64,000 bases of DNA from Escherichia coli (GCF_002854065.1 NZ_CP024147.1); one strand, 5' to 3'. Counted from the first letter of the stretch, positions 4,662 through 49,042 are shown. Translations and numbers: made by a program. The notes: generated by a model not told the origin, from the letters alone.

Positions 4662-5699
4662 ATGGGGCAACAAAAGCAGCGTAATCGACGTTGGGTTCTG
4701 GCCTCGCGTCCACATGGCGCACCAGTTCCGGAGAATTTCCGTCTTGAAGAAGATGATGTCGCCACACCGGGTGAAGGACAGGTGTTACTGCGCACAGTTT
4801 ATTTGTCCCTGGACCCGTATATGCGTGGACGTATGAGCGATGAGCCATCTTATTCACCGCCGGTTGATATTGGCGGCGTGATGGCCGGCGGTACGGTGAG
4901 CCGTGTCGTGGAGTCGAATCATCCTGATTATCAGCCTGGCGATTGGGTGCTGGGCTACAGTGGATGGCAGGACTATGACATATCCAGTGGTGATGATCTG
5001 GTGAAACTTGGCGATCATCCGCAAAATCCATCGTGGTCGCTGGGTATGCTGGGGATGCCAGGCTTTACCGCTTATATGGGGCTGCTGGATATCGGTCAGC
5101 CTAAAGAGGGCGAAACGTTGGTGGTAGCTGCGGCGACAGGACCAGTGGGGGCGACGGTGGGGCAAATCGGCAAACTTAAAGGTTGCAGAGTGGTGGGGGT
5201 AGCCGGTGGCGCGGATAAATGCCGCCATGCTACCGAGGTGTTAGGCTTCGATGTTTGCCTTGATCACCACGCGGACGATTTTGCCGAACAACTGGCGAAA
5301 GCGTGCCCAAAAGGTATTGATATCTATTATGAAAACGTGGGCGGTAAGGTATTTGATGCAGTGCTACCATTACTTAATACATCTGCGCGCATTCCCGTTT
5401 GTGGCTTAGTGAGCAGCTATAACGCTACAGAGCTACCACCCGGTCCGGATCGTTTACCCCTGTTGATGGCAACGGTGCTGAAAAAACGTATTCGCTTGCA
5501 AGGGTTTATTATCGCCCAGGATTATGGTCATCGCATCCATGAGTTTCAGAAGGAGATGGGGCAATGGGTGAAAGAGGATAAAATCCACTACCGCGAAGAA
5601 ATTACTGACGGTTTAGAGAATGCGCCACAGACGTTTATCGGCCTGCTGAAGGGTAAAAACTTCGGCAAAGTGGTGATCCGCGTGGCGGGTGATGATTAA
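4662..5699 (+). CDS. curA: NADPH-dependent curcumin/dihydrocurcumin reductase (MDR superfamily)
   Basis: Start MGQQKQRNRRWVLASRPHG after AGGAGAG ribosome-binding site; 345 aa; medium-chain dehydrogenase Rossmann motif AAATGPVGATVGQIGK. Confidence 0.85.
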   Translation: MGQQKQRNRRWVLASRPHGAPVPENFRLEEDDVATPGEGQVLLRTVYLSLDPYMRGRMSDEPSYSPPVDIGGVMAGGTVSRVVESNHPDYQPGDWVLGYSGWQDYDISSGDDLVKLGDHPQNPSWSLGMLGMPGFTAYMGLLDIGQPKEGETLVVAAATGPVGATVGQIGKLKGCRVVGVAGGADKCRHATEVLGFDVCLDHHADDFAEQLAKACPKGIDIYYENVGGKVFDAVLPLLNTSARIPVCGLVSSYNATELPPGPDRLPLLMATVLKKRIRLQGFIIAQDYGHRIHEFQKEMGQWVKEDKIHYREEITDGLENAPQTFIGLLKGKNFGKVVIRVAGDD

Positions 5700-6597: not shown

Positions 6598-8700
6598 TTA
6601 CTCAAATCGCCATGCGATATTCACGCCGACACCATAATTTCGCCCGGGCGCAGGTTCGTAATATCGCCCGTTTGACTCATTGACAATGACAGAACCAACG
6701 TATTCTTTATCGAATAAATTATCGACACGACCAAATAAGTCCACAGTTAAATTGTGGTAATTGTATTTATACCCGGTGAATAAGCCGACGAGAGTATAAG
6801 ACGGCGCTTTGGCCGTATTTTCATCATCTGCCATAATATCGCCCATATAACGCGCTTCCGTGCCTGCATACCAACCATCTTCCGGTACATAACCTATCGA
6901 CGCAAAGCCCATATTACGGGCGATCCCTGGCATCCGATTACCGTTACAATCCTGTTCGTTGCAAACATTGCTGCGATAGGTCGCATCAAGCCAGGTCCAG
7001 GACGCGTTTACGCGAAAATCTCCCGCGAAACGTTGATCCCATGCCAGTTCAGCGCCTTGACGACGGGTCTTTCCGGCATTTTTGTAAGTCGTACGCCCAC
7101 CGCTACTGCTATCGACAACAATTTCATCATCGGTGTCGGTCTGGAACAATGCGAGACTAAGCAGCCCATCACCAATACGCGTTTTACTGCCGATCTCAAT
7201 TGTATCGTTGGTGGATGGTTTTAAACCAAAGTTCATACCGCTTTGCCCATCAGCGCGATAAGACAGCTCATTAATCGTCGGCGTTTCAAAACCTCGACCA
7301 GCTGCCAGATAGATATTCCAGGCATCAGTCATTGCATATTTTAACGATCCGGCAGGTAGCCATTTGTGATAACTGGCATCACCACTGTCATCGCCGTTAC
7401 CCGGAGTAACGTAATGGTCGTTGGAATCAAACCACACGGAGCTGTAGCGCACGCCAGCATCCAGCGACAGTTTTTCGCTCAGCTGCCACTGCGTTTGTAA
7501 ATAGGGATCGACGTTCCACATCAGATTGCGTTCGTCGCGACGCAACTCACCTTTTTGCCCGTATTCCGGCACGCCGCTATTCAGGCGGAAATTATTGTAG
7601 CCCTTGCGGTTTTCACTCATGTTTTCGTAGTTCAGACCGGTGGTGAACGTGACTGGAACGCCCAGTTCACCTCGGTGTGTCCAGCGACTGTCTATCCCCT
7701 GGTAATGGCGTTGTAGAGTAATCACGCCACCCGCGTGTGACGGGTTAAGTTGTGGTGCCATCGGGATGGACTGGTATTGGGTCGTTTCACGTTCACCTGC
7801 GTACATCATTACACTCATATCATCGCTTGCGCTAAGACTACGCTCATAACGCAACCCAGCCTGAGTTTGCTTGATGGTTTTTCGCGTGTCGTACTGTTCA
7901 GCGCGTGGCGCTTGTTGTGGATTCGCCTTCCATTCTGCTTCGGTTAATCCACCAGGATCATCTGCTTTTATATCCACACTATTGAAAATCAGGCTTAATT
8001 TGCTGACTTCATCAATGCGTACGCCCAGTTTGGCATTGGCTAAATTTTTCTGTGCGCCACTATGGTCACGGTAGCCGTGGGTCGTAAAGCGCGTGGTTGA
8101 GACGGTGTAATCGACATCGCCAGGCTGTGTACCGTCGCCCATTGCGCCCGTTGCTTTCAGCCCATAGCGCCAGCTGCCAAAACTGCCGTAGTAACTGCTG
8201 GCTTCAATGGTTGGTGGCTGTTGCCCGGTCTGGGTGGTGACATTCATTACCCCGCCAGACGCGTTGCCATACAGGGCAGAGAAGGGGCCACGCAGCACTT
8301 CTACATTTTGCACACTGCTTAAATCGATGTTGGATGTTTGCCCTTGTCCGTCGGGCATGGTGGCGGGAATACCGTCTACATACAGGCGAATACCGCGAAT
8401 TCCGTAAGTGGAGCGGGAGCCAAATCCGCGAATCGACAGCTGTAAATCTTGCGCATAGTTCTGCCGGTTTTGTACCTGCAAACCAGGCACGCTGGTCAGA
8501 GATTCAGACAAGTTGATGCGCGGTGTTGCCAGGCGCATCTCCTCGCCATCCACCACGCTTACTGCTGCTGGCGTATCCAGCTCGGAAACCACCTGCGGCG
8601 CGGCACTGACAATCATGGTTTGTTCATCAGCGGCAAAAACGGCGGGGGAAAGGACAAGCAGCGCGGACAAAACGGTCTGTCGGGCGGAAAAAATCTTCAT
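6598..8700 (-). CDS. yncD: TonB-dependent outer membrane receptor YncD
   Basis: 700 aa; signal peptide, plug and beta-barrel; C-terminal aromatic residue (NIAWRFE). Confidence 0.9.
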   Translation of the reverse strand: MKIFSARQTVLSALLVLSPAVFAADEQTMIVSAAPQVVSELDTPAAVSVVDGEEMRLATPRINLSESLTSVPGLQVQNRQNYAQDLQLSIRGFGSRSTYGIRGIRLYVDGIPATMPDGQGQTSNIDLSSVQNVEVLRGPFSALYGNASGGVMNVTTQTGQQPPTIEASSYYGSFGSWRYGLKATGAMGDGTQPGDVDYTVSTTRFTTHGYRDHSGAQKNLANAKLGVRIDEVSKLSLIFNSVDIKADDPGGLTEAEWKANPQQAPRAEQYDTRKTIKQTQAGLRYERSLSASDDMSVMMYAGERETTQYQSIPMAPQLNPSHAGGVITLQRHYQGIDSRWTHRGELGVPVTFTTGLNYENMSENRKGYNNFRLNSGVPEYGQKGELRRDERNLMWNVDPYLQTQWQLSEKLSLDAGVRYSSVWFDSNDHYVTPGNGDDSGDASYHKWLPAGSLKYAMTDAWNIYLAAGRGFETPTINELSYRADGQSGMNFGLKPSTNDTIEIGSKTRIGDGLLSLALFQTDTDDEIVVDSSSGGRTTYKNAGKTRRQGAELAWDQRFAGDFRVNASWTWLDATYRSNVCNEQDCNGNRMPGIARNMGFASIGYVPEDGWYAGTEARYMGDIMADDENTAKAPSYTLVGLFTGYKYNYHNLTVDLFGRVDNLFDKEYVGSVIVNESNGRYYEPAPGRNYGVGVNIAWRFE

Positions 8701-11625: not shown

Positions 11626-12599
11626 TGCGCTCCCTGATTGCTTTAATGAAAAAAGTCTTTTATGTCGCCATGAACAATGTTTATTCATCCTGGCGATGAC
11701 AAGATTCACCATTATTCTTTATGGGTATAACTGTCGGCGCAGAATCCTACCTTTTATCGTGTAACGATGCAAAATAATCCCACTATAAATGTGAGGGGAT
11801 AAAGGCAGCTGGCGACAAAATAGCAACCTGATGAAATTATGACGGAAACAACCACTATTGGTTCGATGATACTCGACTGTCGCCGACTCTTTAGCCAATC
11901 GTTTGTCGCTCTGAGCGCAAGTGGTTGCAGTGGACACTGGTGTGGTTGGTTTTCGCTGATTATCATTGAATAGTGAGGGACCAGCGCATGAGTGGTTTCA
12001 GGGGTAATACGCCAAATACCAATACAATTGCTGATTAGAAATGCCAGTTGTCGAGGTCACAGAAAGTGCAAAAAATGTAAGAGTGATATCGGGTGACAAT
12101 TGTGCTATTGCCCAGCAGAAATTTTTTAAATTAGTACTGTTCCAGGGGCATTACAAACCTTAAAACATTACTTCAATATAATTAATGTGTATATCATTCT
12201 TGATATTAATTTATGAAGTGAATTTGATATATTCCGAATTCTTAATTTACATTACTAATGTATGGGACATAACGTTAAGATGGCTATGTGCAGATTAAGA
12301 TATCAGGGTGGGGCGGTAGCGTTTACAGATATTAATTAATTGATGAGAGCTATGTTATCCGCACAATCATTTACATCAGCTATTGATATTGAAGATAGAT
12401 AAATAAATATGCTGAGAATTAATGTTAAGGAATCGTAATGGGAAACTTTGATAACTTGCTTTGATTTCATTCTCTATGAAGATGATGTCATCAACACTGC
12501 ATAAAGTGGAAATATTGAACATCAAAGAGAACCATATTTAATAAATAATAACAGAGCGTTTGTGTTTATCTGAAAAATATCATTTCCAGGAGGTAGGAT

Positions 12600-13130
12600 A
12601 TGTCATTAAGGAGAATGACATCTGGTGAATTAGCATTGGCCAGATCGATTTTTGAAAATACAATTGATTATAGTAAGGTATGGATCCACAATGAAAAATA
12701 TTTGCCGGGTCAAGGGGAAAGAACAGCGATGACCCCAAACGGGGAAATGTATTATCCTGATGCTGTTTATAGTTCAGATTATTCATCGCAAACAATGCCT
12801 GGTGATCGTGAAACAGTAGCAGGTGCTTCTCACTTGTTTATTCATGAAATGATGCATGTTTGGCAATATCAGAAAGGGTATGCAGTTAAGTTGCGTGGTT
12901 TATTTTCCTGGGCGGCAAATTATCATTACGATCTTAATTTACAGTCAATTTCTTCTTATTCCATGGAACAACAAGCATCTATAGTTGCTGATTATTGGCT
13001 ATTGATTAACTATGGACTGGTGGCTGATTTGGCAAATGTTAACTATGTAGGTGATACAACTGAATCCGTTAACACTCTATCGGAAAAATACAAAAAGGTG
13101 CTTAATTTATTTCCTGCGGGTGTCATATGA
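12600..13130 (+). CDS. HExxH zincin-like protein, DUF4157-like (putative effector/toxin)
   Basis: 176 aa; strong AGGAGGTAGG ribosome-binding site; no signal peptide; motif string IDYSKVWIHNE...ERTAMTPNGEMYYP...HLFIHEMMHVWQYQ resembles my recollection of the DUF4157 consensus (DLSxVRVH...AFTxG...LLAHELxHVxQQ); AT-rich context. Confidence 0.55.
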   Translation: MSLRRMTSGELALARSIFENTIDYSKVWIHNEKYLPGQGERTAMTPNGEMYYPDAVYSSDYSSQTMPGDRETVAGASHLFIHEMMHVWQYQKGYAVKLRGLFSWAANYHYDLNLQSISSYSMEQQASIVADYWLLINYGLVADLANVNYVGDTTESVNTLSEKYKKVLNLFPAGVI

Positions 13131-13483
13131 AGAGATTCTTTTTGTTTTTCTTTTTGTCGGGATGCACTGTTGGTGATTATGTTCGCCCATTGTTACCCGG
13201 TAATGTATATTTACAAGATGGACGGGTTTGTTCAAAACCAGACGATGGAGGTATTATTTCAAATTATATTTTATATGAAGGTAAATATGGCAATGCAATA
13301 AAGCTGAAAAGAGTAACAGGTCAGTTCGACCCCGTATGTATTGACATAAGTGAGCTATCTTCAGATGTTATTTATATCGGGCAATATATGCTCTCTTCCG
13401 GAAGTAAAAAAGAATACTATGGTTTTAGAATAATTAGATCCGGAGTACGTATTTTAAGACTTGATGATAACCATATCAAATAA
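13127..13483 (+). CDS. small lipoprotein, translationally coupled partner (putative immunity/inhibitor)
   Basis: 118 aa; ATGA start/stop overlap with the upstream gene; lipobox FLSGC (signal MKRFFLFFFLSGC). Confidence 0.55.
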   Translation: MKRFFLFFFLSGCTVGDYVRPLLPGNVYLQDGRVCSKPDDGGIISNYILYEGKYGNAIKLKRVTGQFDPVCIDISELSSDVIYIGQYMLSSGSKKEYYGFRIIRSGVRILRLDDNHIK

Positions 13484-13703
13484 CAGATTAAAAATTTTAT
13501 TAGTTTCATTAATGTGCTTTAGGTGAATGTTTTCACCAGGTTAACATGACGGTGCATTCTTCAAGGCATATATGGTTGATAGTATCTTCAGTAGCTCGCA
13601 TAAGTATTGAGATGTTTTACGCCAGTTACGAATATATTGCATATTTTATTCTCTGTAAGATTTCTTATTAGCACTTAGCCATTTCTAGTTAAAAGGATTA
13701 ATT

Positions 13704-15191
13704 ATGAGTTTTGCAGCTACAGATTATCCATCCGGCGCACTAACTGGATCGGGTACACATAACGTGACTTTGAGCGGCAGCGCAGTTCCTGATGGAATGT
13801 TACTGTTTGCAAGCTTAGGGGGTACAGAAACAGTAGGGGAACTATTTACTTATTCTATTAAATTAAAAACTCCTGACATCCTGAACCTGGGCTATGTTTC
13901 CCCCGCCGCAAACCTGCAGCTCAAACCGATGGTGGGCAAAGATCTGTGCGTCCATATCGAACTGGATGGCGGCGGAAAACGTTATATCAGCGGGCTGGTG
14001 ACGGCGGCACGCGTGGCTGGTCATCAAGGACGTTCGGTGGTGTATGAACTGCGGCTCGAACCGTGGTTAAAAATACTGACCCACACTAGTGACTACAAAG
14101 CGTTTCAGAATAAAAACGTGGTGGACATCCTGGATGAGGTACTGGATGAGTATCCCTGGCCAGTGGAAAAACGGCTGGTGGAAAATTATCCGACTCGCGC
14201 CTGGCAGATGCAGTACGGTGAAACAGATTTCGCTTTTATTCAGCGCCTGATGCAGGAGTGGGGTATCTACTGGTGGTTTGAGCACAGCGAGAACAGTCAC
14301 ACGTTAGTGCTGGCTGATGCCATTAATGTCCACAAGGCATGCGCAGATTCGCCGCTGGTGTGTTATTACCAGAAAGGGCTGAAACTGGACAAGGAGTTTA
14401 TCCATACCATCACAGCAAATGAAAGTCTGCGCAGCGGACAGTGGGTGCTGAATGATTTCGACTTTATGAAGCCGCGTTCACTGCTGAAGAGCACCGTGGC
14501 TAATCCGCGTGAAACCGGCCTTGCTGAATATGAGCACTACGAATGGCCGGGAGATTACTTCACAAAGAGTGAAGGTGAAATGCTGACACGCATTCGCATG
14601 GAAGAACAGCGTAGCCCCGGTAGTCGGGTACAGGGCAGCGGCAATATTCGTACCCTGATGACAGGTTTTACCTTCACCCTGGAAAACTATCCGACAGCCG
14701 AAGTGAACCGGGAATATCTGCTGGTACAGACCACGCTATTTATACAGGACAATGCGCAACACAGCGGCCAGGAGCAGCATTTCTCTTACTCAACCAGCTT
14801 TGAACTGCATCCCACCAGCGAAGTTTACCGCCCACAACGAACCCTGAGCAAACCCCACACTAAAGGCCCGCAGAGTGCCATCGTCACCGGCCCGGCAGGG
14901 CAGGAAATCTGGACAGATAAATATGGCCGGGTGAAAGTTCAGTTTGGCTGGGATCGTTACGGTAAGAATGACGAAAACAGCTCCTGCTGGGTCCGTGTCA
15001 GTTATCCGTGGGCTGGTAAAGGATTCGGTGGCATTCAGATCCCGCGTATTGGTCAAGAAGTACTGGTGGATTTCAAAAACGGTGATCCGGATTTACCGAT
15101 AATCGTTGGGCGTACCTACAACCAGGACACCATGCCACCGTGGGGACTACCTGAACGGCGTGTACGACAGCACGGGGCACCTGCTGCGTGA
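13704..15191 (+). pseudogene. vgrG: vgrG, N-terminal portion only (T6SS spike protein), truncated
   Basis: 495 aa ORF containing the VgrG gp27/gp5 signature ([39 protein letters not shown]); the frame ends shortly after this motif, well short of a full-length VgrG. Confidence 0.75.
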
Positions 15192-15298: not shown

Positions 15299-15513
15299 GG
15301 GCACCCCTCCGAAATCTTCACCGTGACACCCCGCCCGGTATCAAATCCGGCCTCTTTCAGCCAGTCGCCCTTAAGGTTCAGGCTGGGGTGTCGTGAGTAG
15401 TACGTGGTCATGTAGGTTTTGCTGTTTATGTGGCGGGCTCTGACATAGCCGACTTTATAGCGTCGCTGTGTTTTGGAAATGGTGACTTCTGGCGTAATAT
15501 CGTGTTCAGCCAT
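15286..15513 (-). pseudogene. SymE-like (AbrB-fold) type I toxin, N-terminal ~76 aa, 3-prime end replaced
   Basis: AGGAG ribosome-binding site plus ATG at 15513; [34 protein letters not shown] aligns with SymE (...[38 protein letters not shown]); after EGC the frame runs antisense into the Rhs/vgrG remnant. Confidence 0.5.
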
Positions 15514-31350: not shown

Positions 31351-32451
31351 TTAGAACTGATAGGTAATGCCCGTAGCGACGATGTTATCGGTGCGAATAT
31401 CTACGGCACGGGTAAAGTCGCTTTCATCAATCAGGTTGATTTTATAATCAACATAGGTCGACATATTTTTGTTGAAGAAATACGTCGCACCAACGTCGAT
31501 ATACTCAATCATGTCCTGGTCGCCGTAGCGGCCCAGATCTTTGCCTTTCGATTTCAGGTAAGCGAGTGAGGGGCGCAAGCCGAAGTCGAATTGATATTGC
31601 GCCACCACTTCAAAACTTTGTGCTTTGTTAGAAATATAACCATCGCCATAGGTGGTCATGTTTAATGTTTCAGCGTAATTAGCTGCAAAGTAGATGTTGT
31701 TGGCATCATATTTTATACCTGTAGCCCACAGTTCTGCATTCTTACCGGAGGCATTGAGAGGATTAGCAGCGGCTCTTTCCTGCGCATTTGTCCGATCGGA
31801 TTTGGTATATACCGCACCGATACCAAAGCCATCATAAACATAAGTTGAGGAGATACCGAAACCGTCACCGTTGGCACGCGTGTAGTCAGCACCATAAAGA
31901 TGACTGTTGTCAGTACGTTCATTTTTGCCTTGATATTGCGCGGCAAAGTTCAGCCCTTCAATTAAGCCAAAGAAATCGTAGTTGCGATAGGTTGCCACAC
32001 CGGTGGTACGGTATGTCATGAAGACATCTTTCTGACTCCAGGTATCGCCACCAAATTCTGGCAACATATCAGTCCATGAACCAATGTCATAGCCGACACC
32101 GTAGTTACGGCCATAGTCCAGAGAGCCAAATTCACTAATTTTTAAACCAGCATAGGCCAGACGGGTCTTGTTGCCGCGCGAGCCGTTGGCTTCATCGTTA
32201 TAGCCTTTAAAATCATATTCCCAGTGACCAAAACCAATCATTTGATCATTGATTTGCGTTTCTCCTTTAAAGCCGAGACGGGCATAAGTTTTATCACCAT
32301 CGTCACGCTTATCATCAGTAAAATAACGTAGAGCGGTAACCTTGCCATAAAGGTCGAGTTTATTACCATCCTTGTTATAGACTTCGGCAGCGTGTGCTAC
32401 GTTCGCAGCTAACAAACCAGTTACAACCACCGCAACTATTTTTAATTTCAT
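31351..32451 (-). CDS. OmpC/OmpF-family general porin, intact (corresponds to the yddL position)
   Basis: 366 aa; signal peptide [38 protein letters not shown]-terminal ...GITYQF; classical 16-strand porin pattern. Confidence 0.85.
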
Positions 32452-33591: not shown

Positions 33592-33744
33592 GCTCGCTGT
33601 TTTGTCTCTCTTGCCGTTAAAAATTAAGCTGAATTTTATAGCATTTTTTTAACTGGCCTGTCAGGCAGTGGTGCGTTTTTCTACCGCTATTGAGGTAGGT
33701 CAATTTGCGCAGGCGGATTATTTTGTGGCAAACACGTGTTCTTT

Positions 33745-33758
33745 TTGATTTCGCGCAA
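33745..33758 (+). promoter_or_regulatory. FNR-like site in the fdnG promoter
   Basis: TTGATttcgCGCAA (FNR consensus TTGAT-N4-ATCAA), centred about 70 bp upstream of the fdnG ATG. Confidence 0.4.
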
Positions 33759-33822
33759 AAAGATTCAGAATTTTACTGTTAGTTTCCTCGCGCAGTAATA
33801 CCCCTGAAAAAAGAGGAAAGCA

Positions 33823-36800
33823 ATGGACGTCAGTCGCAGACAATTTTTTAAAATCTGCGCGGGCGGTATGGCTGGAACAACAGTAGCGGCATTGGGCTTT
33901 GCCCCGAAGCAAGCACTGGCTCAGGCGCGAAACTACAAATTATTACGCGCTAAAGAGATCCGTAACACCTGCACATACTGTTCCGTAGGTTGCGGGCTAT
34001 TGATGTATAGCCTGGGTGATGGCGCGAAAAACGCCAGAGAAGCGATTTATCACATTGAAGGTGACCCGGATCATCCGGTAAGCCGTGGTGCGCTGTGCCC
34101 GAAAGGGGCCGGTTTGCTGGATTACGTCAACAGCGAAAACCGTCTGCGCTACCCGGAATATCGTGCGCCAGGTTCTGACAAATGGCAGCGCATTAGCTGG
34201 GAAGAAGCATTCTCCCGTATTGCGAAGCTGATGAAAGCTGACCGTGACGCTAACTTTATTGAAAAGAACGAGCAGGGTGTAACGGTAAACCGTTGGCTTT
34301 CTACCGGTATGCTGTGTGCCTCCGGTGCCAGCAACGAAACCGGGATGCTGACCCAGAAATTTGCCCGCTCCCTCGGGATGCTGGCGGTAGACAACCAGGC
34401 GCGCGTCTGACACGGACCAACGGTAGCAAGTCTTGCTCCAACATTTGGTCGCGGTGCGATGACCAACCACTGGGTGGATATCAAAAACGCTAACGTCGTG
34501 ATGGTGATGGGCGGTAACGCTGCTGAAGCGCATCCCGTCGGTTTCCGCTGGGCGATGGAAGCGAAAAACAACAACGATGCAACCTTGATCGTTGTCGATC
34601 CCCGTTTTACGCGTACCGCATCTGTGGCGGATATCTACGCGCCTATTCGTTCCGGTACGGACATTACGTTCCTGTCTGGCGTTTTGCGCTACCTGATCGA
34701 AAACAACAAAATCAACGCCGAATACGTTAAGCATTACACCAACGCCAGCCTGCTGGTGCGTGATGATTTTGCTTTCGAAGACGGTCTGTTCAGCGGCTAC
34801 GACGCTGAAAAACGCCAGTACGATAAGTCGTCCTGGAACTATCAGTTCGATGAAAACGGCTATGCAAAACGCGATGAAACACTGACTCATCCGCGCTGTG
34901 TGTGGAACCTGCTGAAAGAGCACGTTTCCCGCTACACGCCGGACGTCGTTGAAAACATCTGCGGTACGCCAAAAGCCGACTTCCTGAAAGTGTGTGAAGT
35001 GCTGGCCTCCACCAGCGCACCGGATCGCACAACCACCTTCCTGTACGCGCTGGGCTGGACGCAGCACACCGTGGGAGCGCAGAACATCCGTACTATGGCG
35101 ATGATCCAGTTGCTGCTCGGTAACATGGGTATGGCCGGTGGCGGCGTGAACGCATTGCGTGGTCACTCCAACATTCAGGGGCTGACTGACTTAGGCCTGC
35201 TCTCTACCAGCCTGCCAGGTTATCTGACGCTGCCGTCAGAAAAACAGGTTGATTTGCAGTCGTATCTGGAAGCGAACACGCCGAAAGCGACGCTGGCTGA
35301 TCAGGTGAACTACTGGAGCAACTATCCGAAGTTCTTCGTTAGCCTGATGAAATCTTTCTATGGCGATGCCGCGCAGAAAGAGAACAACTGGGGCTATGAC
35401 TGGCTGCCGAAGTGGGACCAGACCTACGACGTCATCAAGTATTTCAACATGATGGATGAAGGCAAAGTCACCGGTTATTTCTGCCAGGGCTTTAACCCGG
35501 TTGCGTCCTTCCCGGACAAAAACAAAGTGGTGAGCTGCCTGAGCAAGCTGAAGTACATGGTGGTTATCGATCCGCTGGTGACTGAAACCTCTACCTTCTG
35601 GCAGAACCACGGCGAGTCGAACGATGTCGATCCGGCGTCTATTCAGACTGAAGTATTCCGTCTGCCTTCGACCTGCTTTGCTGAAGAGGATGGTTCTATC
35701 GCTAACTCCGGTCGCTGGTTGCAGTGGCACTGGAAAGGTCAGGACGCGCCGGGCGAAGCGCGTAACGACGGCGAAATTCTGGCGGGTATCTACCATCATC
35801 TGCGCGAGTTGTACCAGGCCGAAGGTGGTAAAGGCGTAGAACCGCTGATGAAGATGAGCTGGAACTACAAGCAGCCGCACGAACCGCAATCTGACGAAGT
35901 AGCTAAAGAGAACAACGGCTATGCGCTGGAAGATCTCTATGATGCTAATGGCGTGCTGATTGCGAAGAAAGGTCAGTTGCTGAGTAGCTTTGCGCATCTG
36001 CGTGATGACGGTACAACCGCATCTTCTTGCTGGATCTACACCGGTAGCTGGACAGAGCAGGGCAACCAGATGGCTAACCGCGATAACTCCGACCCGTCTG
36101 GTCTGGGGAATACGCTGGGATGGGCCTGGGCGTGGCCGCTCAACCGTCGCGTGCTGTACAACCGTGCTTCGGCGGATATCAACGGTAAACCGTGGGATCC
36201 GAAACGGATGCTGATCCAGTGGAACGGCAGCAAGTGGACGGGTAACGATATTCCTGACTTCGGCAATGCCGCACCGGGTACGCCAACCGGGCCGTTTATC
36301 ATGCAGCCGGAAGGGATGGGACGCCTGTTTGCCATCAACAAAATGGCGGAAGGTCCGTTCCCGGAACACTACGAGCCGATTGAAACGCCGCTGGGCACTA
36401 ACCCGCTGCATCCGAACGTGGTGTCTAACCCGGTTGTTCGTCTGTATGAACAAGACGCACTGCGGATGGGTAAAAAAGAGCAGTTCCCGTATGTGGGTAC
36501 GACCTATCGTCTGACCGAGCACTTCCACACCTGGACCAAGCACGCCTTGCTCAACGCAATTGCTCAGCCGGAACAGTTTGTGGAAATCAGCGAAACGCTG
36601 GCGGCGGCGAAAGGCATTAATAATGGCGATCGTGTCACTGTCTCCAGCAAGCGTGGATTTATCCGCGCGGTGGCTGTGGTAACGCGCCGTCTGAAGCCGC
36701 TGAATGTAAACGGTCAGCAGGTTGAAACGGTGGGTATTCCAATCCACTGGGGCTTTGAGGGTGTCGCGCGTAAAGGTTATATCGCTAACACTCTGACGCC

Positions 36801-36870
36801 GAATGTCGGTGATGCAAACTCGCAAACGCCGGAATATAAAGCGTTCTTAGTCAACATCGAGAAGGCGTAA
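33823..36870 (+). CDS. fdnG: formate dehydrogenase-N alpha subunit (selenoprotein; UGA at 34408..34410 decoded as Sec)
   Basis: Tat signal MDVSRRQFFKICAGG; ORFs 33823..34410 and 34459..36870 are in the same frame, separated only by the in-frame TGA in ...DNQARV-U-HGPTVASL; total 1015 codons. Confidence 0.95.
34411..34450 (+). promoter_or_regulatory. SECIS element region (mRNA hairpin for SelB-directed Sec insertion)
   Basis: Sequence immediately 3-prime of the fdnG UGA (CACGGACCAACGGTAGCAAGTCTTGCTCC...) contains a GCAAG-TCTTGC stem-loop in the expected position. Confidence 0.5.
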
Positions 36871-36882
36871 GGGGGCGAACAG

Positions 36883-37767
36883 ATGGCTATGGAAACGCAG
36901 GACATTATCAAAAGGTCCGCAACTAACTCCATCACGCCGCCTTCTCAGGTGCGTGATTACAAAGCAGAAGTCGCAAAACTTATCGACGTTTCCACCTGTA
37001 TCGGCTGTAAAGCCTGTCAGGTGGCGTGTTCGGAGTGGAACGACATCCGTGATGAAGTGGGGCACTGCGTCGGGGTTTACGATAACCCCGCCGATCTGAG
37101 CGCCAAGTCCTGGACGGTGATGCGCTTTAGCGAAACCGAACAGAACGGCAAGCTGGAGTGGCTGATCCGTAAAGACGGCTGTATGCACTGTGAAGATCCA
37201 GGCTGCCTGAAGGCGTGCCCGTCTGCTGGTGCAATCATTCAGTACGCTAACGGGATTGTCGATTTCCAGTCGGAAAACTGCATCGGCTGTGGTTACTGCA
37301 TTGCCGGGTGTCCGTTTAATATTCCGCGCCTCAACAAAGAGGATAACCGGGTATATAAATGCACGCTCTGCGTCGATCGCGTCAGCGTCGGCCAGGAACC
37401 GGCTTGTGTGAAAACCTGTCCGACCGGGGCTATCCACTTCGGCACCAAGAAGGAGATGCTGGAGCTGGCGGAACAGCGCGTGGCGAAACTGAAAGCGCGT
37501 GGTTACGAACATGCTGGCGTCTACAACCCGGAAGGGGTCGGTGGTACGCACGTTATGTACGTGCTGCATCACGCCGATCAGCCGGAGCTGTATCACGGTC
37601 TGCCGAAAGATCCGAAGATCGACACCTCGGTAAGCCTGTGGAAAGGCGCGTTGAAACCGCTGGCAGCGGCTGGCTTTATTGCCACTTTTGCAGGGTTGAT
37701 TTTCCATTACATCGGTATTGGCCCGAATAAGGAAGTGGACGATGACGAGGAGGATCATCATGAGTAA
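36883..37767 (+). CDS. fdnH: formate dehydrogenase-N beta subunit (4x[4Fe-4S])
   Basis: 294 aa; four ferredoxin-type Cys clusters; C-terminal TM helix. Confidence 0.95.
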
Positions 37768-38413
37768 GTCGAAAATGATTGTGCGCACCAAATTTATTGA
37801 TCGCGCCTGTCACTGGACCGTGGTGATTTGCTTCTTCCTGGTGGCGCTGTCCGGGATTTCGTTCTTCTTCCCGACGCTGCAATGGCTGACGCAAACCTTC
37901 GGTACGCCGCAGATGGGACGTATTTTGCACCCATTCTTCGGCATTGCGATTTTCGTCGCACTGATGTTTATGTTTGTGCGTTTTGTGCATCACAACATCC
38001 CGGATAAGAAAGATATTCCGTGGCTGTTGAACATTGTCGAAGTATTAAAAGGCAATGAGCACAAAGTGGCGGATGTCGGTAAGTACAACGCCGGGCAAAA
38101 GATGATGTTCTGGTCGATCATGAGCATGATTTTCGTGCTGTTGGTGACCGGGGTGATTATCTGGCGTCCGTACTTTGCGCAGTACTTCCCGATGCAGGTT
38201 GTCCGTTATAGCCTGCTGATCCACGCGGCTGCCGGTATCATCCTGATCCACGCCATCCTGATCCATATGTATATGGCATTCTGGGTGAAAGGATCGATTA
38301 AAGGGATGATCGAAGGGAATGTGAGCCGTCTCTGGGCGAAGAAACACCATCCGCGCTGGTATCGTGAAATCGAGAAGGCAGAAGCGAAAAAAGAGAGTGA
38401 AGAAGGGATATAA
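37760..38413 (+). CDS. fdnI: formate dehydrogenase-N gamma subunit (cytochrome b556)
   Basis: Start [19 protein letters not shown] overlapping the fdnH stop by 8 bp; 217 aa. Confidence 0.9.
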
Positions 38414-38480: not shown

Positions 38481-38600
38481 GGCTTTGTTCATGCCGGATG
38501 CGGCGTGAACGCCTTATCCGGCCTACAAACCGTTCAAATCCAATAGATTGCAGTGAACATGTAGGCCTGATAAGCGTAGAGCATCAGGCAATGTTGCATT
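38481..38600. repeat. REP/BIME cluster
   Basis: GCCGGATGCGGCGTGAACGCCTTATCCGGCCTAC ... GTAGGCCTGATAAGCGTAGAGCATCAGGCA. Confidence 0.6.
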
Positions 38601-47491: not shown

Positions 47492-49042
47492 TTATTTACT
47501 CATGGTATTGATATTGAAGACCTGTTCCAGCATGGGATTGAACACAAAGCCTTTCACCTCTTTGTTCATCGCCAGTTGGTAGTTTTTCTGGAACAGGTAC
47601 ACATAAGCAGCGTCATCAATGACGATTTTCTGTGCCTGCTGGTAGTTCCGGGTACGCTGCGTCTGGTCGGTGGTCGCGAGCGCATTGCGCAGTAACTTAT
47701 CAACCTCACTGTTTTCATAGAACGAGCGGTTACCCGGCAGACCTTTTTTGTCGGACTCAAACCAGTAATTCATAAACATATACGGGTCGGCAAAATCCGG
47801 ACTCCAGTTGCCAATCGCAATGTCGTAATCACCTTTACCCACTCTGTCGCGCATGGTGGCGTTCGCCAGCTTTTCCAGCTTCACATTGATGCCCAGCTTG
47901 TTGAGACTGGATTGTGTCGCTAGAGCAATAGGCTCCCAGTTCGGATCATTATCAGAATAGAGAAACGTCAGGCTGGTGGGTTTGCTCTTCACTTTATCCC
48001 ATTCGGCTTTGGCTTTCGTTTCGTCATGGTTGTATTGCATTGCCGTCGCATCGTAGCCCCACATGCCTTCCGGAATCGGGCCGCGCATTTGTTTTCCGTT
48101 ACCACTCAGAATGCCGTTAACCATGCCCTGATAATCGGTAGACCAGGAAATGGCCCGCCGCAGCTCCGCCTGATTAAGTGGCGCTTTGCTGTTATTCAGA
48201 TACAGATAGGTGACGCGCAGTGACGGATACTCTGCCACATTGACTTTATTTTCCTACTTCAGGGCGTTGAGTTGATCCACCGGCAGCGCATCGGCAATGT
48301 CAATGTCGCCACGGGAGAGCTGCAGGCGACGGGAGGCACTTTCACCGATAATTTTTACCGATACTCGCTTAAAGTTCGGTTTATTGCCGGGGTAATGCGG
48401 ATTTGGCACCAGAACTAATTGCTGACCTTTTTGCCAGCTTTTCAGCATAAATGGTCCGGAACCGGCGGTATTTTGCGCGAGGAAGCCGCGGGCATCATCC
48501 GCCGCATGTTCCTTTAACACCGCCGGATTGATAATGGATGCACCGTCATTCGCCAGCGTGTAGAGGAACGGTGCGAATGGTTGGCTAAGGGTAAACTTCA
48601 CCGTATGTTCGTCGGGAGCATCAATCTTTAAATCTTTGGGAAATGCTTCTGCTGGCCCCTGGCCGATTTTTAGTAGCCGCTCAAAAGAAAGTTTTACTGC
48701 TTCGGCAGTGACAGGTGTGCCATCGGCAAATTTAGCATTATCTTTCAGGGTGAACGTCCACTCTTTTTGATCGTCAGACGCTTTCCAGCTACTTGCCAGA
48801 TCGCCTTCAACGTCGGTTGAGCCTTTATCACCGTCCGTTTTGTACTGAACCAGTCGCTGATAAGACGGGTAGGTCACCGTCCAGTCGTTATTATCTATTG
48901 TTACCGCCGGGTCGAGGGTTTGTGGATCGGCGGCCTTACCAATCACCAGCATATCTTTCGGTACGGCGGCGTGCGCAACCGGGAAAGTTGTGGCAAGGAC
49001 GAGCGCGAGCAATGTGGGACGAAACGATATCGATCTCTTCAT
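47492..49042 (-). pseudogene. ddpA: D,D-dipeptide periplasmic binding protein gene with an in-frame amber (TAG) codon at 48254..48256
   Basis: ORFs 48254..49180 (signal peptide MKRSISFRPTLLALVLATTFPVAHA) and 47492..48238 are in the same frame: ...PVDQLNALK-TAG-ENKVNVAEYPSLRV...; 517 codons in total. Confidence 0.8.

Follow-up and report, generated by a model that had tools for sequence, protein, structure and literature searches.

The in-frame TGA at positions 34408-34410 is almost certainly the selenocysteine (Sec) codon, Sec196, of Escherichia coli fdnG, with 34405-34463 as its SECIS element. The feature is one already known, a textbook bacterial Sec-recoding site with nothing new in it, and RefSeq has the gene as a single CDS. 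All positions are counted from the first letter of the window, that is, the whole stretch of 64,000 nucleotides (64 kb) analysed here. The features concerned are given below.

33823..36870, + strand: fdnG CDS, catalytic alpha subunit of formate dehydrogenase-N (Fdh-N), 1015 codons including Sec196, plus TAA.
34408..34410, + strand: UGA codon 196, read as selenocysteine, the presumed Mo-ligand residue (sequence, alignment to 1KQF_A, paralogs, literature).
34405..34463, + strand: bacterial SECIS, Rfam RF01989 SECIS_3 (score 84.3 bits, gathering score 63, E 1.3e-19; the match spans the complete model, 1-59).
34411..34453, + strand: whole hairpin with lower helix, 5' arm 34411-34420 and 3' arm 34445-34453, the lower helix being weaker.
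34422..34439, + strand: apical stem-loop GGUAGCAAGUCUUGCUCC, the predicted SelB-binding part (covariation, invariant U17/G23/U24, synonymous sites).
36883..37767, + strand: fdnH, Fe-S beta subunit (TIGR01582, 482.1 bits against a cutoff of 334.7).
37760..38413, + strand: fdnI, cytochrome b gamma subunit (NF007558, the Fdh-N gamma model, 481.2 bits).

Read directly from the sequence, the TGA lies in frame at 34408-34410 on the + strand, within the codons GCG CGC GTC TGA CAC GGA CCA ACG GTA GCA AGT CTT GCT CCA. A mechanical list of open reading frames splits the gene into 33823-34410 (195 codons) and 34459-36870 (803 codons), which share a common frame. Translation of 33823-36870 in that one frame meets a single internal stop, at codon 196, before the terminal TAA at 36868-36870, and the 820 codons 3' of the TGA are without further stops or frameshifts. 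The initial annotation had located an in-frame TGA at 34408..34410; the codon coordinates are exact and the frame is open to 36870. At the N-terminus, the translation reads a twin-arginine motif, SRRQFFK, at FdnG residues 4-10, a motif that functions in Tat export.

The identity of the gene is supported by several independent comparisons. The window is E. coli chromosome. Over 33700-37000 it shows 100% identity to strain CUWW06, and 5425 of the 5426 complete E. coli genomes have matches of at least 80% query coverage to this stretch. In the identical CUWW06 stretch, RefSeq has fdnG as one CDS with equal coordinates and no pseudogene flag. The gene order runs from yddG, upstream and on the other strand, through fdnG-fdnH-fdnI to yddM, a RelE/ParE-family toxin gene, adhP and maeA. 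FdnG scores 1622.9 bits on NCBIfam TIGR01553 (Fdh-N alpha; cutoff 814.2), its residues 2-1014 covering profile positions 1-1009. A search of solved structures, with the TGA residue entered as X, matched PDB 1KQF chain A over the full length (residues 1-1015; 2401.6 bits), a chain whose title is "formate dehydrogenase, nitrate-inducible, major subunit" (structure of Jormakka et al. 2002, PMID 11884747, as cited in PMC3160892). The TGA aligns to the non-standard residue X196 of this chain, and only two substitutions separate the proteins in the approximately 990 alignment residues displayed (F342 for L and A666 for S).

Three E. coli genes, fdhF, fdoG and fdnG, have an internal Sec-encoding TGA (PMC11903333), and the operon can be told apart from that of Fdh-O. 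FdnI scores 267.5 bits on NF007924, the Fdh-O gamma model, under its cutoff of 341; since it fits the Fdh-N gamma model and fails the Fdh-O gamma cutoff, the operon is that of Fdh-N and not of Fdh-O. The paralog fdoG, which encodes formate dehydrogenase-O alpha, also has its TGA at codon 196 and an element of the same Rfam family, SECIS_3, but resides at another locus (fdoGHI-fdhE), has its gamma subunit in a different NCBIfam equivalog and is only 75% identical overall at the nucleotide level, the K-12 FdoG protein being 76.9% identical to FdnG. Near-identity to 1KQF_A, the NCBIfam scores, the neighbouring genes and this distance to FdoG thus indicate that the gene is fdnG, not fdoG. The earlier assignment to fdnG of formate dehydrogenase-N is therefore upheld, with TIGR01553, the FdnI model, synteny and 1KQF_A in agreement. 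In K-12, fdnG with its Sec196 is the same locus: the synteny of yddG, fdnGHI, yddM and adhP is identical, TGA is codon 196 in both, and the differences amount to strain-level polymorphism only.

Compared with CUWW06, the window is without a 1331-bp IS2 (at approximately 4690-4694) and a 768-bp IS1 (at approximately 12096-12104), both upstream of fdnG; the empty sites appear as BLAST segment overlaps of 5 bp and 9 bp, matching the CUWW06 target-site duplications, and the rest of the window is approximately 99.97% identical, so the stretch derives from a close relative of CUWW06 and not from CUWW06 itself. Between leucine-rich-repeat protein genes and yddG lies an intact porin gene of 366 amino acids (31351-32451, - strand), named "OmpC" in a related RefSeq record. 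At this position K-12 presumably has the porin pseudogene yddL.

The initial annotation had also described a stem-loop downstream of the TGA as the SECIS of formate dehydrogenase-N. In an Rfam scan of the 64 kb, SECIS_3 is the sole cis-regulatory family above threshold, and one of two families of any kind above threshold in the whole window; the SECIS_2 model gives the fdnG element only 28.8 bits against a gathering score of 70. The hairpin begins at 34411, immediately 3' of the UGA. In its apical helix, 34422-34429 pairs with 34433-34439 around a GUC loop (34430-34432). The U at 34424 is bulged and becomes U17 in a numbering that starts from the U of UGA; in that numbering, loop residues G34430 and U34431 are G23 and U24, the former being the 20th nucleotide after the UGA. 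Bacterial SECIS elements lie inside the coding region just 3' of the UGA, with a conserved loop G approximately 20 nt after the codon (PMC4605307, where recognition by SelB is also summarised). The range first proposed for the site, 34408-34450, contains a real hairpin and encloses the apical part at 34422-34439, but it leaves out the last three pairs of the lower helix, which ends at 34453.

The same layout is found in fdhF. The SECIS of this gene, the archetype among bacterial elements of its kind, has been dissected by experiment; used as a query, its sequence matched fdhF in E. coli genomes with 100% identity. Its hairpin likewise starts right after the codon, with a U17 bulge and a G23-U24 loop at a distance from the UGA equal to that in fdnG, and fdnG, fdoG and fdhF have the common context ARV-UGA-HGP. 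However, fdhF has a UGCA/UGCA stem and a GGUC loop, whereas in fdnG the stem is AGCAA/UUGCU and an A-U pair closes a GUC triloop; the lower helices differ too. The enzymes differ as well: fdhF encodes formate dehydrogenase-H, a cytoplasmic enzyme of 715 residues with Sec at codon 140 rather than 196. The Rfam score, the covariation described below and the U17/G23/U24 layout of fdhF all bear out the description of the downstream hairpin as the SECIS.

The same Rfam scan gave other matches. The model isrA (RF01385) matches 15314-15442 (+ strand) with 119.3 bits against a gathering score of 51. On the - strand, 15304-15513 is a truncated pseudogene for a type I toxin of the SymE family, to which the match is antisense, and the site adjoins a truncated Vgr gene and Rhs-family genes (12600-15152). 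This site looks like a remnant of a SymE/SymR-type toxin with its antisense RNA. In the intergenic region between fdnI and yddM, 38487-38568 gives two matches below the gathering score, naRNA4 with 38.2 of the 59.5 bits required and ES036 with 33.2 of 37.6 bits; we read both as candidate REP-type palindromes.

Comparison with the paralog, an alignment that had been proposed as a check on the site, revealed a block of 71 nt identical between fdnG (34405-34475, + strand) and K-12 fdoG (approximately 7166-7236 of the fdoG locus, - strand), starting 3 nt 5' of the UGA and including every synonymous site. This is the longest identical run of the two genes, the next being 36 nt, and all 19 of its degenerate codons are identical, compared with 58% gene-wide. 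All but one of the complete E. coli genomes (5425 of 5426) carry the 71-mer at 99% identity or more, the median copy number being two.

RNA folding, the other check proposed for the site, gave a divided outcome. The minimum-energy fold of the single sequence reproduces the SECIS hairpin. Its energy, on the other hand, is no better than that of dinucleotide shuffles (z of -1.11 for 34408-34450, -0.77 for 34405-34463 and -0.02 for 34390-34490) and is not discriminating by itself; extra stability for a given composition is not a curated defining feature of the SECIS_3 family. Because the energy is indistinguishable from that of shuffles, the evidence for the SECIS comes from comparison and not from thermodynamics.

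To compare the element across species, homologs were collected from one genome per species with a pattern that specified the coding context DNQARV-UGA-HG only, the hairpin being left free apart from CAYGG. At least 120 loci have a TGA in that coding context, in a set that was chosen to contain TGA and is silent on how often the codon has been replaced. The TGA-context loci listed belong to Gamma-, Beta- and Alphaproteobacteria, with single ones elsewhere, for example in Geomesophilobacter and a Terriglobia MAG. Among the matches listed, 69 distinct 62-mers could be aligned without gaps. In these 69 sequences, 92.5% of the cells of the Rfam structure are paired, as against 26-50% when the partners are slid by 1-3 columns, and 41 cells are changed on both sides, a number reached by none of 500 shuffles. 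The seven pairs of the apical helix are paired in 100% of cells, and three of them have changed on both sides, switching among A-U, G-C, C-G and U-G, while U17, G23 and U24 are invariant, again in the 69 distinct sequences among the matches listed.

The third codon positions follow the same pattern. Among the matches listed (113 sequences), Thr+4 is always ACG and Ser/Gly+7 always (A/G)GU, with zero third-position entropy, and the third positions that covary are those of Val+5 with Ala+9 and of Ala+6 with Leu+8. At four-fold degenerate sites beyond the stem-loop, the entropy ranges from 1.2 to 1.9 bits. The third positions are thus frozen or covarying exactly where the helix and loop need them, which argues for a constraint on the RNA and not on the protein. 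Selection on the apical stem-loop at the RNA level is in this way re-derived from sequence alone. As a control, we searched for the same coding context with a Cys codon (TGY) and found three metagenome loci: in the first the hairpin is preserved, in the second U24 is lost, the codon being AGC instead of AGU, and in the third only three of the seven apical pairs are left. These loci suggest a relaxed constraint once the UGA is gone, although with three loci the case is anecdotal.

The lower helix behaves differently. It is paired in 86.6% of cells with zero double changes (69 sequences among the matches listed). In the Rfam register, E. coli has two non-standard pairs (A-C and A-G); in the E. 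coli minimum-energy fold, part of the helix is shifted by one, all pairs being Watson-Crick with one bulge. Neither register displays compensatory changes across species in the 69 sequences among the matches listed, and the pairing register is ambiguous. An extended lower helix that includes the UGA, as drawn in the minimum-energy fold, was considered and rejected: its added pairs are either invariant or often broken, with columns 3-54 unpaired in 24, columns 6-51 in 37 and columns 12-45 in 52 of the 69 sequences among the matches listed.

Within Enterobacterales, the fixation of synonymous sites spans the whole element. In 30 loci comprising both paralogs, third positions are almost wholly fixed over the 59 nt of the element, with flanks that are 70-86% identical, a result that is partly circular given that the subset was picked by similarity in codons -1 to +19; that criterion dropped only one enterobacterial sequence among the matches listed. 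The fixed stretch covers codons -1 to approximately +18 (34405 to approximately 34465), whereas in the wider Proteobacteria only the apical part is fixed. It is possible, though rather unlikely, that the lower helix and the 3' flank carry a lineage-specific extra function in Enterobacterales, which, if true, could for instance be the tuning of UGA accessibility, competition with RF2 or unwinding by the ribosome. Alternatively, function may be confined to the minimal hairpin that binds SelB. We also considered whether the frozen block extends beyond the Rfam model, past 34463 to 34473-34475. The extension adds two degenerate codons only, AAC and CAC, both two-fold, and is not significant because two-fold codons of zero entropy occur in the flanks too.

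Two other explanations of the internal stop have to be weighed against Sec recoding. The UGA could be read by near-cognate read-through (by a Trp or Cys tRNA) with no Sec pathway, the conservation around it reflecting protein constraint on the active-site segment HGPTVASLAPTFGRGAMTN. Protein constraint does account for part of the nucleotide conservation, given the highly conserved peptide that follows the UGA, and the hairpin energy is not significant. However, synonymous sites that are frozen or covarying at the helix and loop go beyond what protein constraint can produce; of the three TGY loci, admittedly few, one is without U24 and one without the upper helix (3/7 pairs); and the Fdh-N/Fdh-O activity band is absent from extracts of a selC mutant (PMC3160892). 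We consider read-through of this kind very improbable.

Alternatively, fdnG might be a pseudogene created by a nonsense mutation, the 803-codon frame being a decaying remnant. The mechanical ORF call does break the gene at 34410, and the window holds a genuine internal-stop pseudogene: ddpA (47492-49042, - strand) has an in-frame TAG at 48254-48256, codon 263 of 516, and carries a pseudogene flag ("internal stop") in a near-identical RefSeq record. Selenocysteine recoding is not applicable to ddpA, whose stop is TAG; unlike fdnG with its recoded TGA, ddpA has truly been turned into a pseudogene by a nonsense codon. Against decay of fdnG stand the conservation, at 99% identity or more, of the TGA with its 71-nt surroundings in 5425 of 5426 E. 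coli genomes; at least 120 proteobacterial loci with this TGA and its coding context; 820 downstream codons with no later stops or frameshifts; a near-identical crystallised enzyme with a non-standard residue at that very place; a SECIS match with an E value of 1e-19; and a RefSeq record without a pseudogene flag. The conservation data refute this reading, whose probability we regard as vanishingly small. The statement of the initial annotation that the split frame should not be taken for a pseudogene is accordingly borne out by the TGA block in 5425 of 5426 genomes, by the intact frame downstream and by RefSeq.

The Sec reading of fdnG can be placed within the SelB/Sec-tRNA(Sec) mechanism, which is well established for E. 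coli. The apical stem-loop, 11 nt 3' of the UGA, would be bound through its bulged U and loop G-U by the C-terminal winged-helix domains of SelB, and SelB with GTP and Sec-tRNA(Sec) would thereby be tethered at the mRNA entrance of the ribosome. The Sec-tRNA(Sec), the product of selC charged through SerRS, SelA and SelD, would then be brought by SelB to the A site on arrival of the UGA, competing with release factor 2. In the finished protein, the catalytic subunit of formate dehydrogenase-N, presumably exported by Tat to the periplasm, the selenol would ligate the Mo of the bis-MGD cofactor. SelB binding, Sec insertion and Mo ligation are steps that we infer from the literature, which includes the absent activity band of the selC mutant noted above and the Fdh-N structure, in which the selenium of Sec coordinates the Mo atom (PMC3160892); the primary report on Sec in fdnG is Berg et al. 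1991 (PMID 1834669), as cited in PMC3160892. The 64-kb window has no tRNA gene, and selA, selB, selC and selD lie outside it. Both selA and selB occur in K-12, and all but one of the complete E. coli genomes (5425 of 5426) have selB. With the Sec machinery outside the window, its presence in this strain is taken from the species.

For annotation, the consequence is that the TGA must be read as selenocysteine, which yields one gene of 1015 residues and not two fragments of 195 and 803 codons or a pseudogene.
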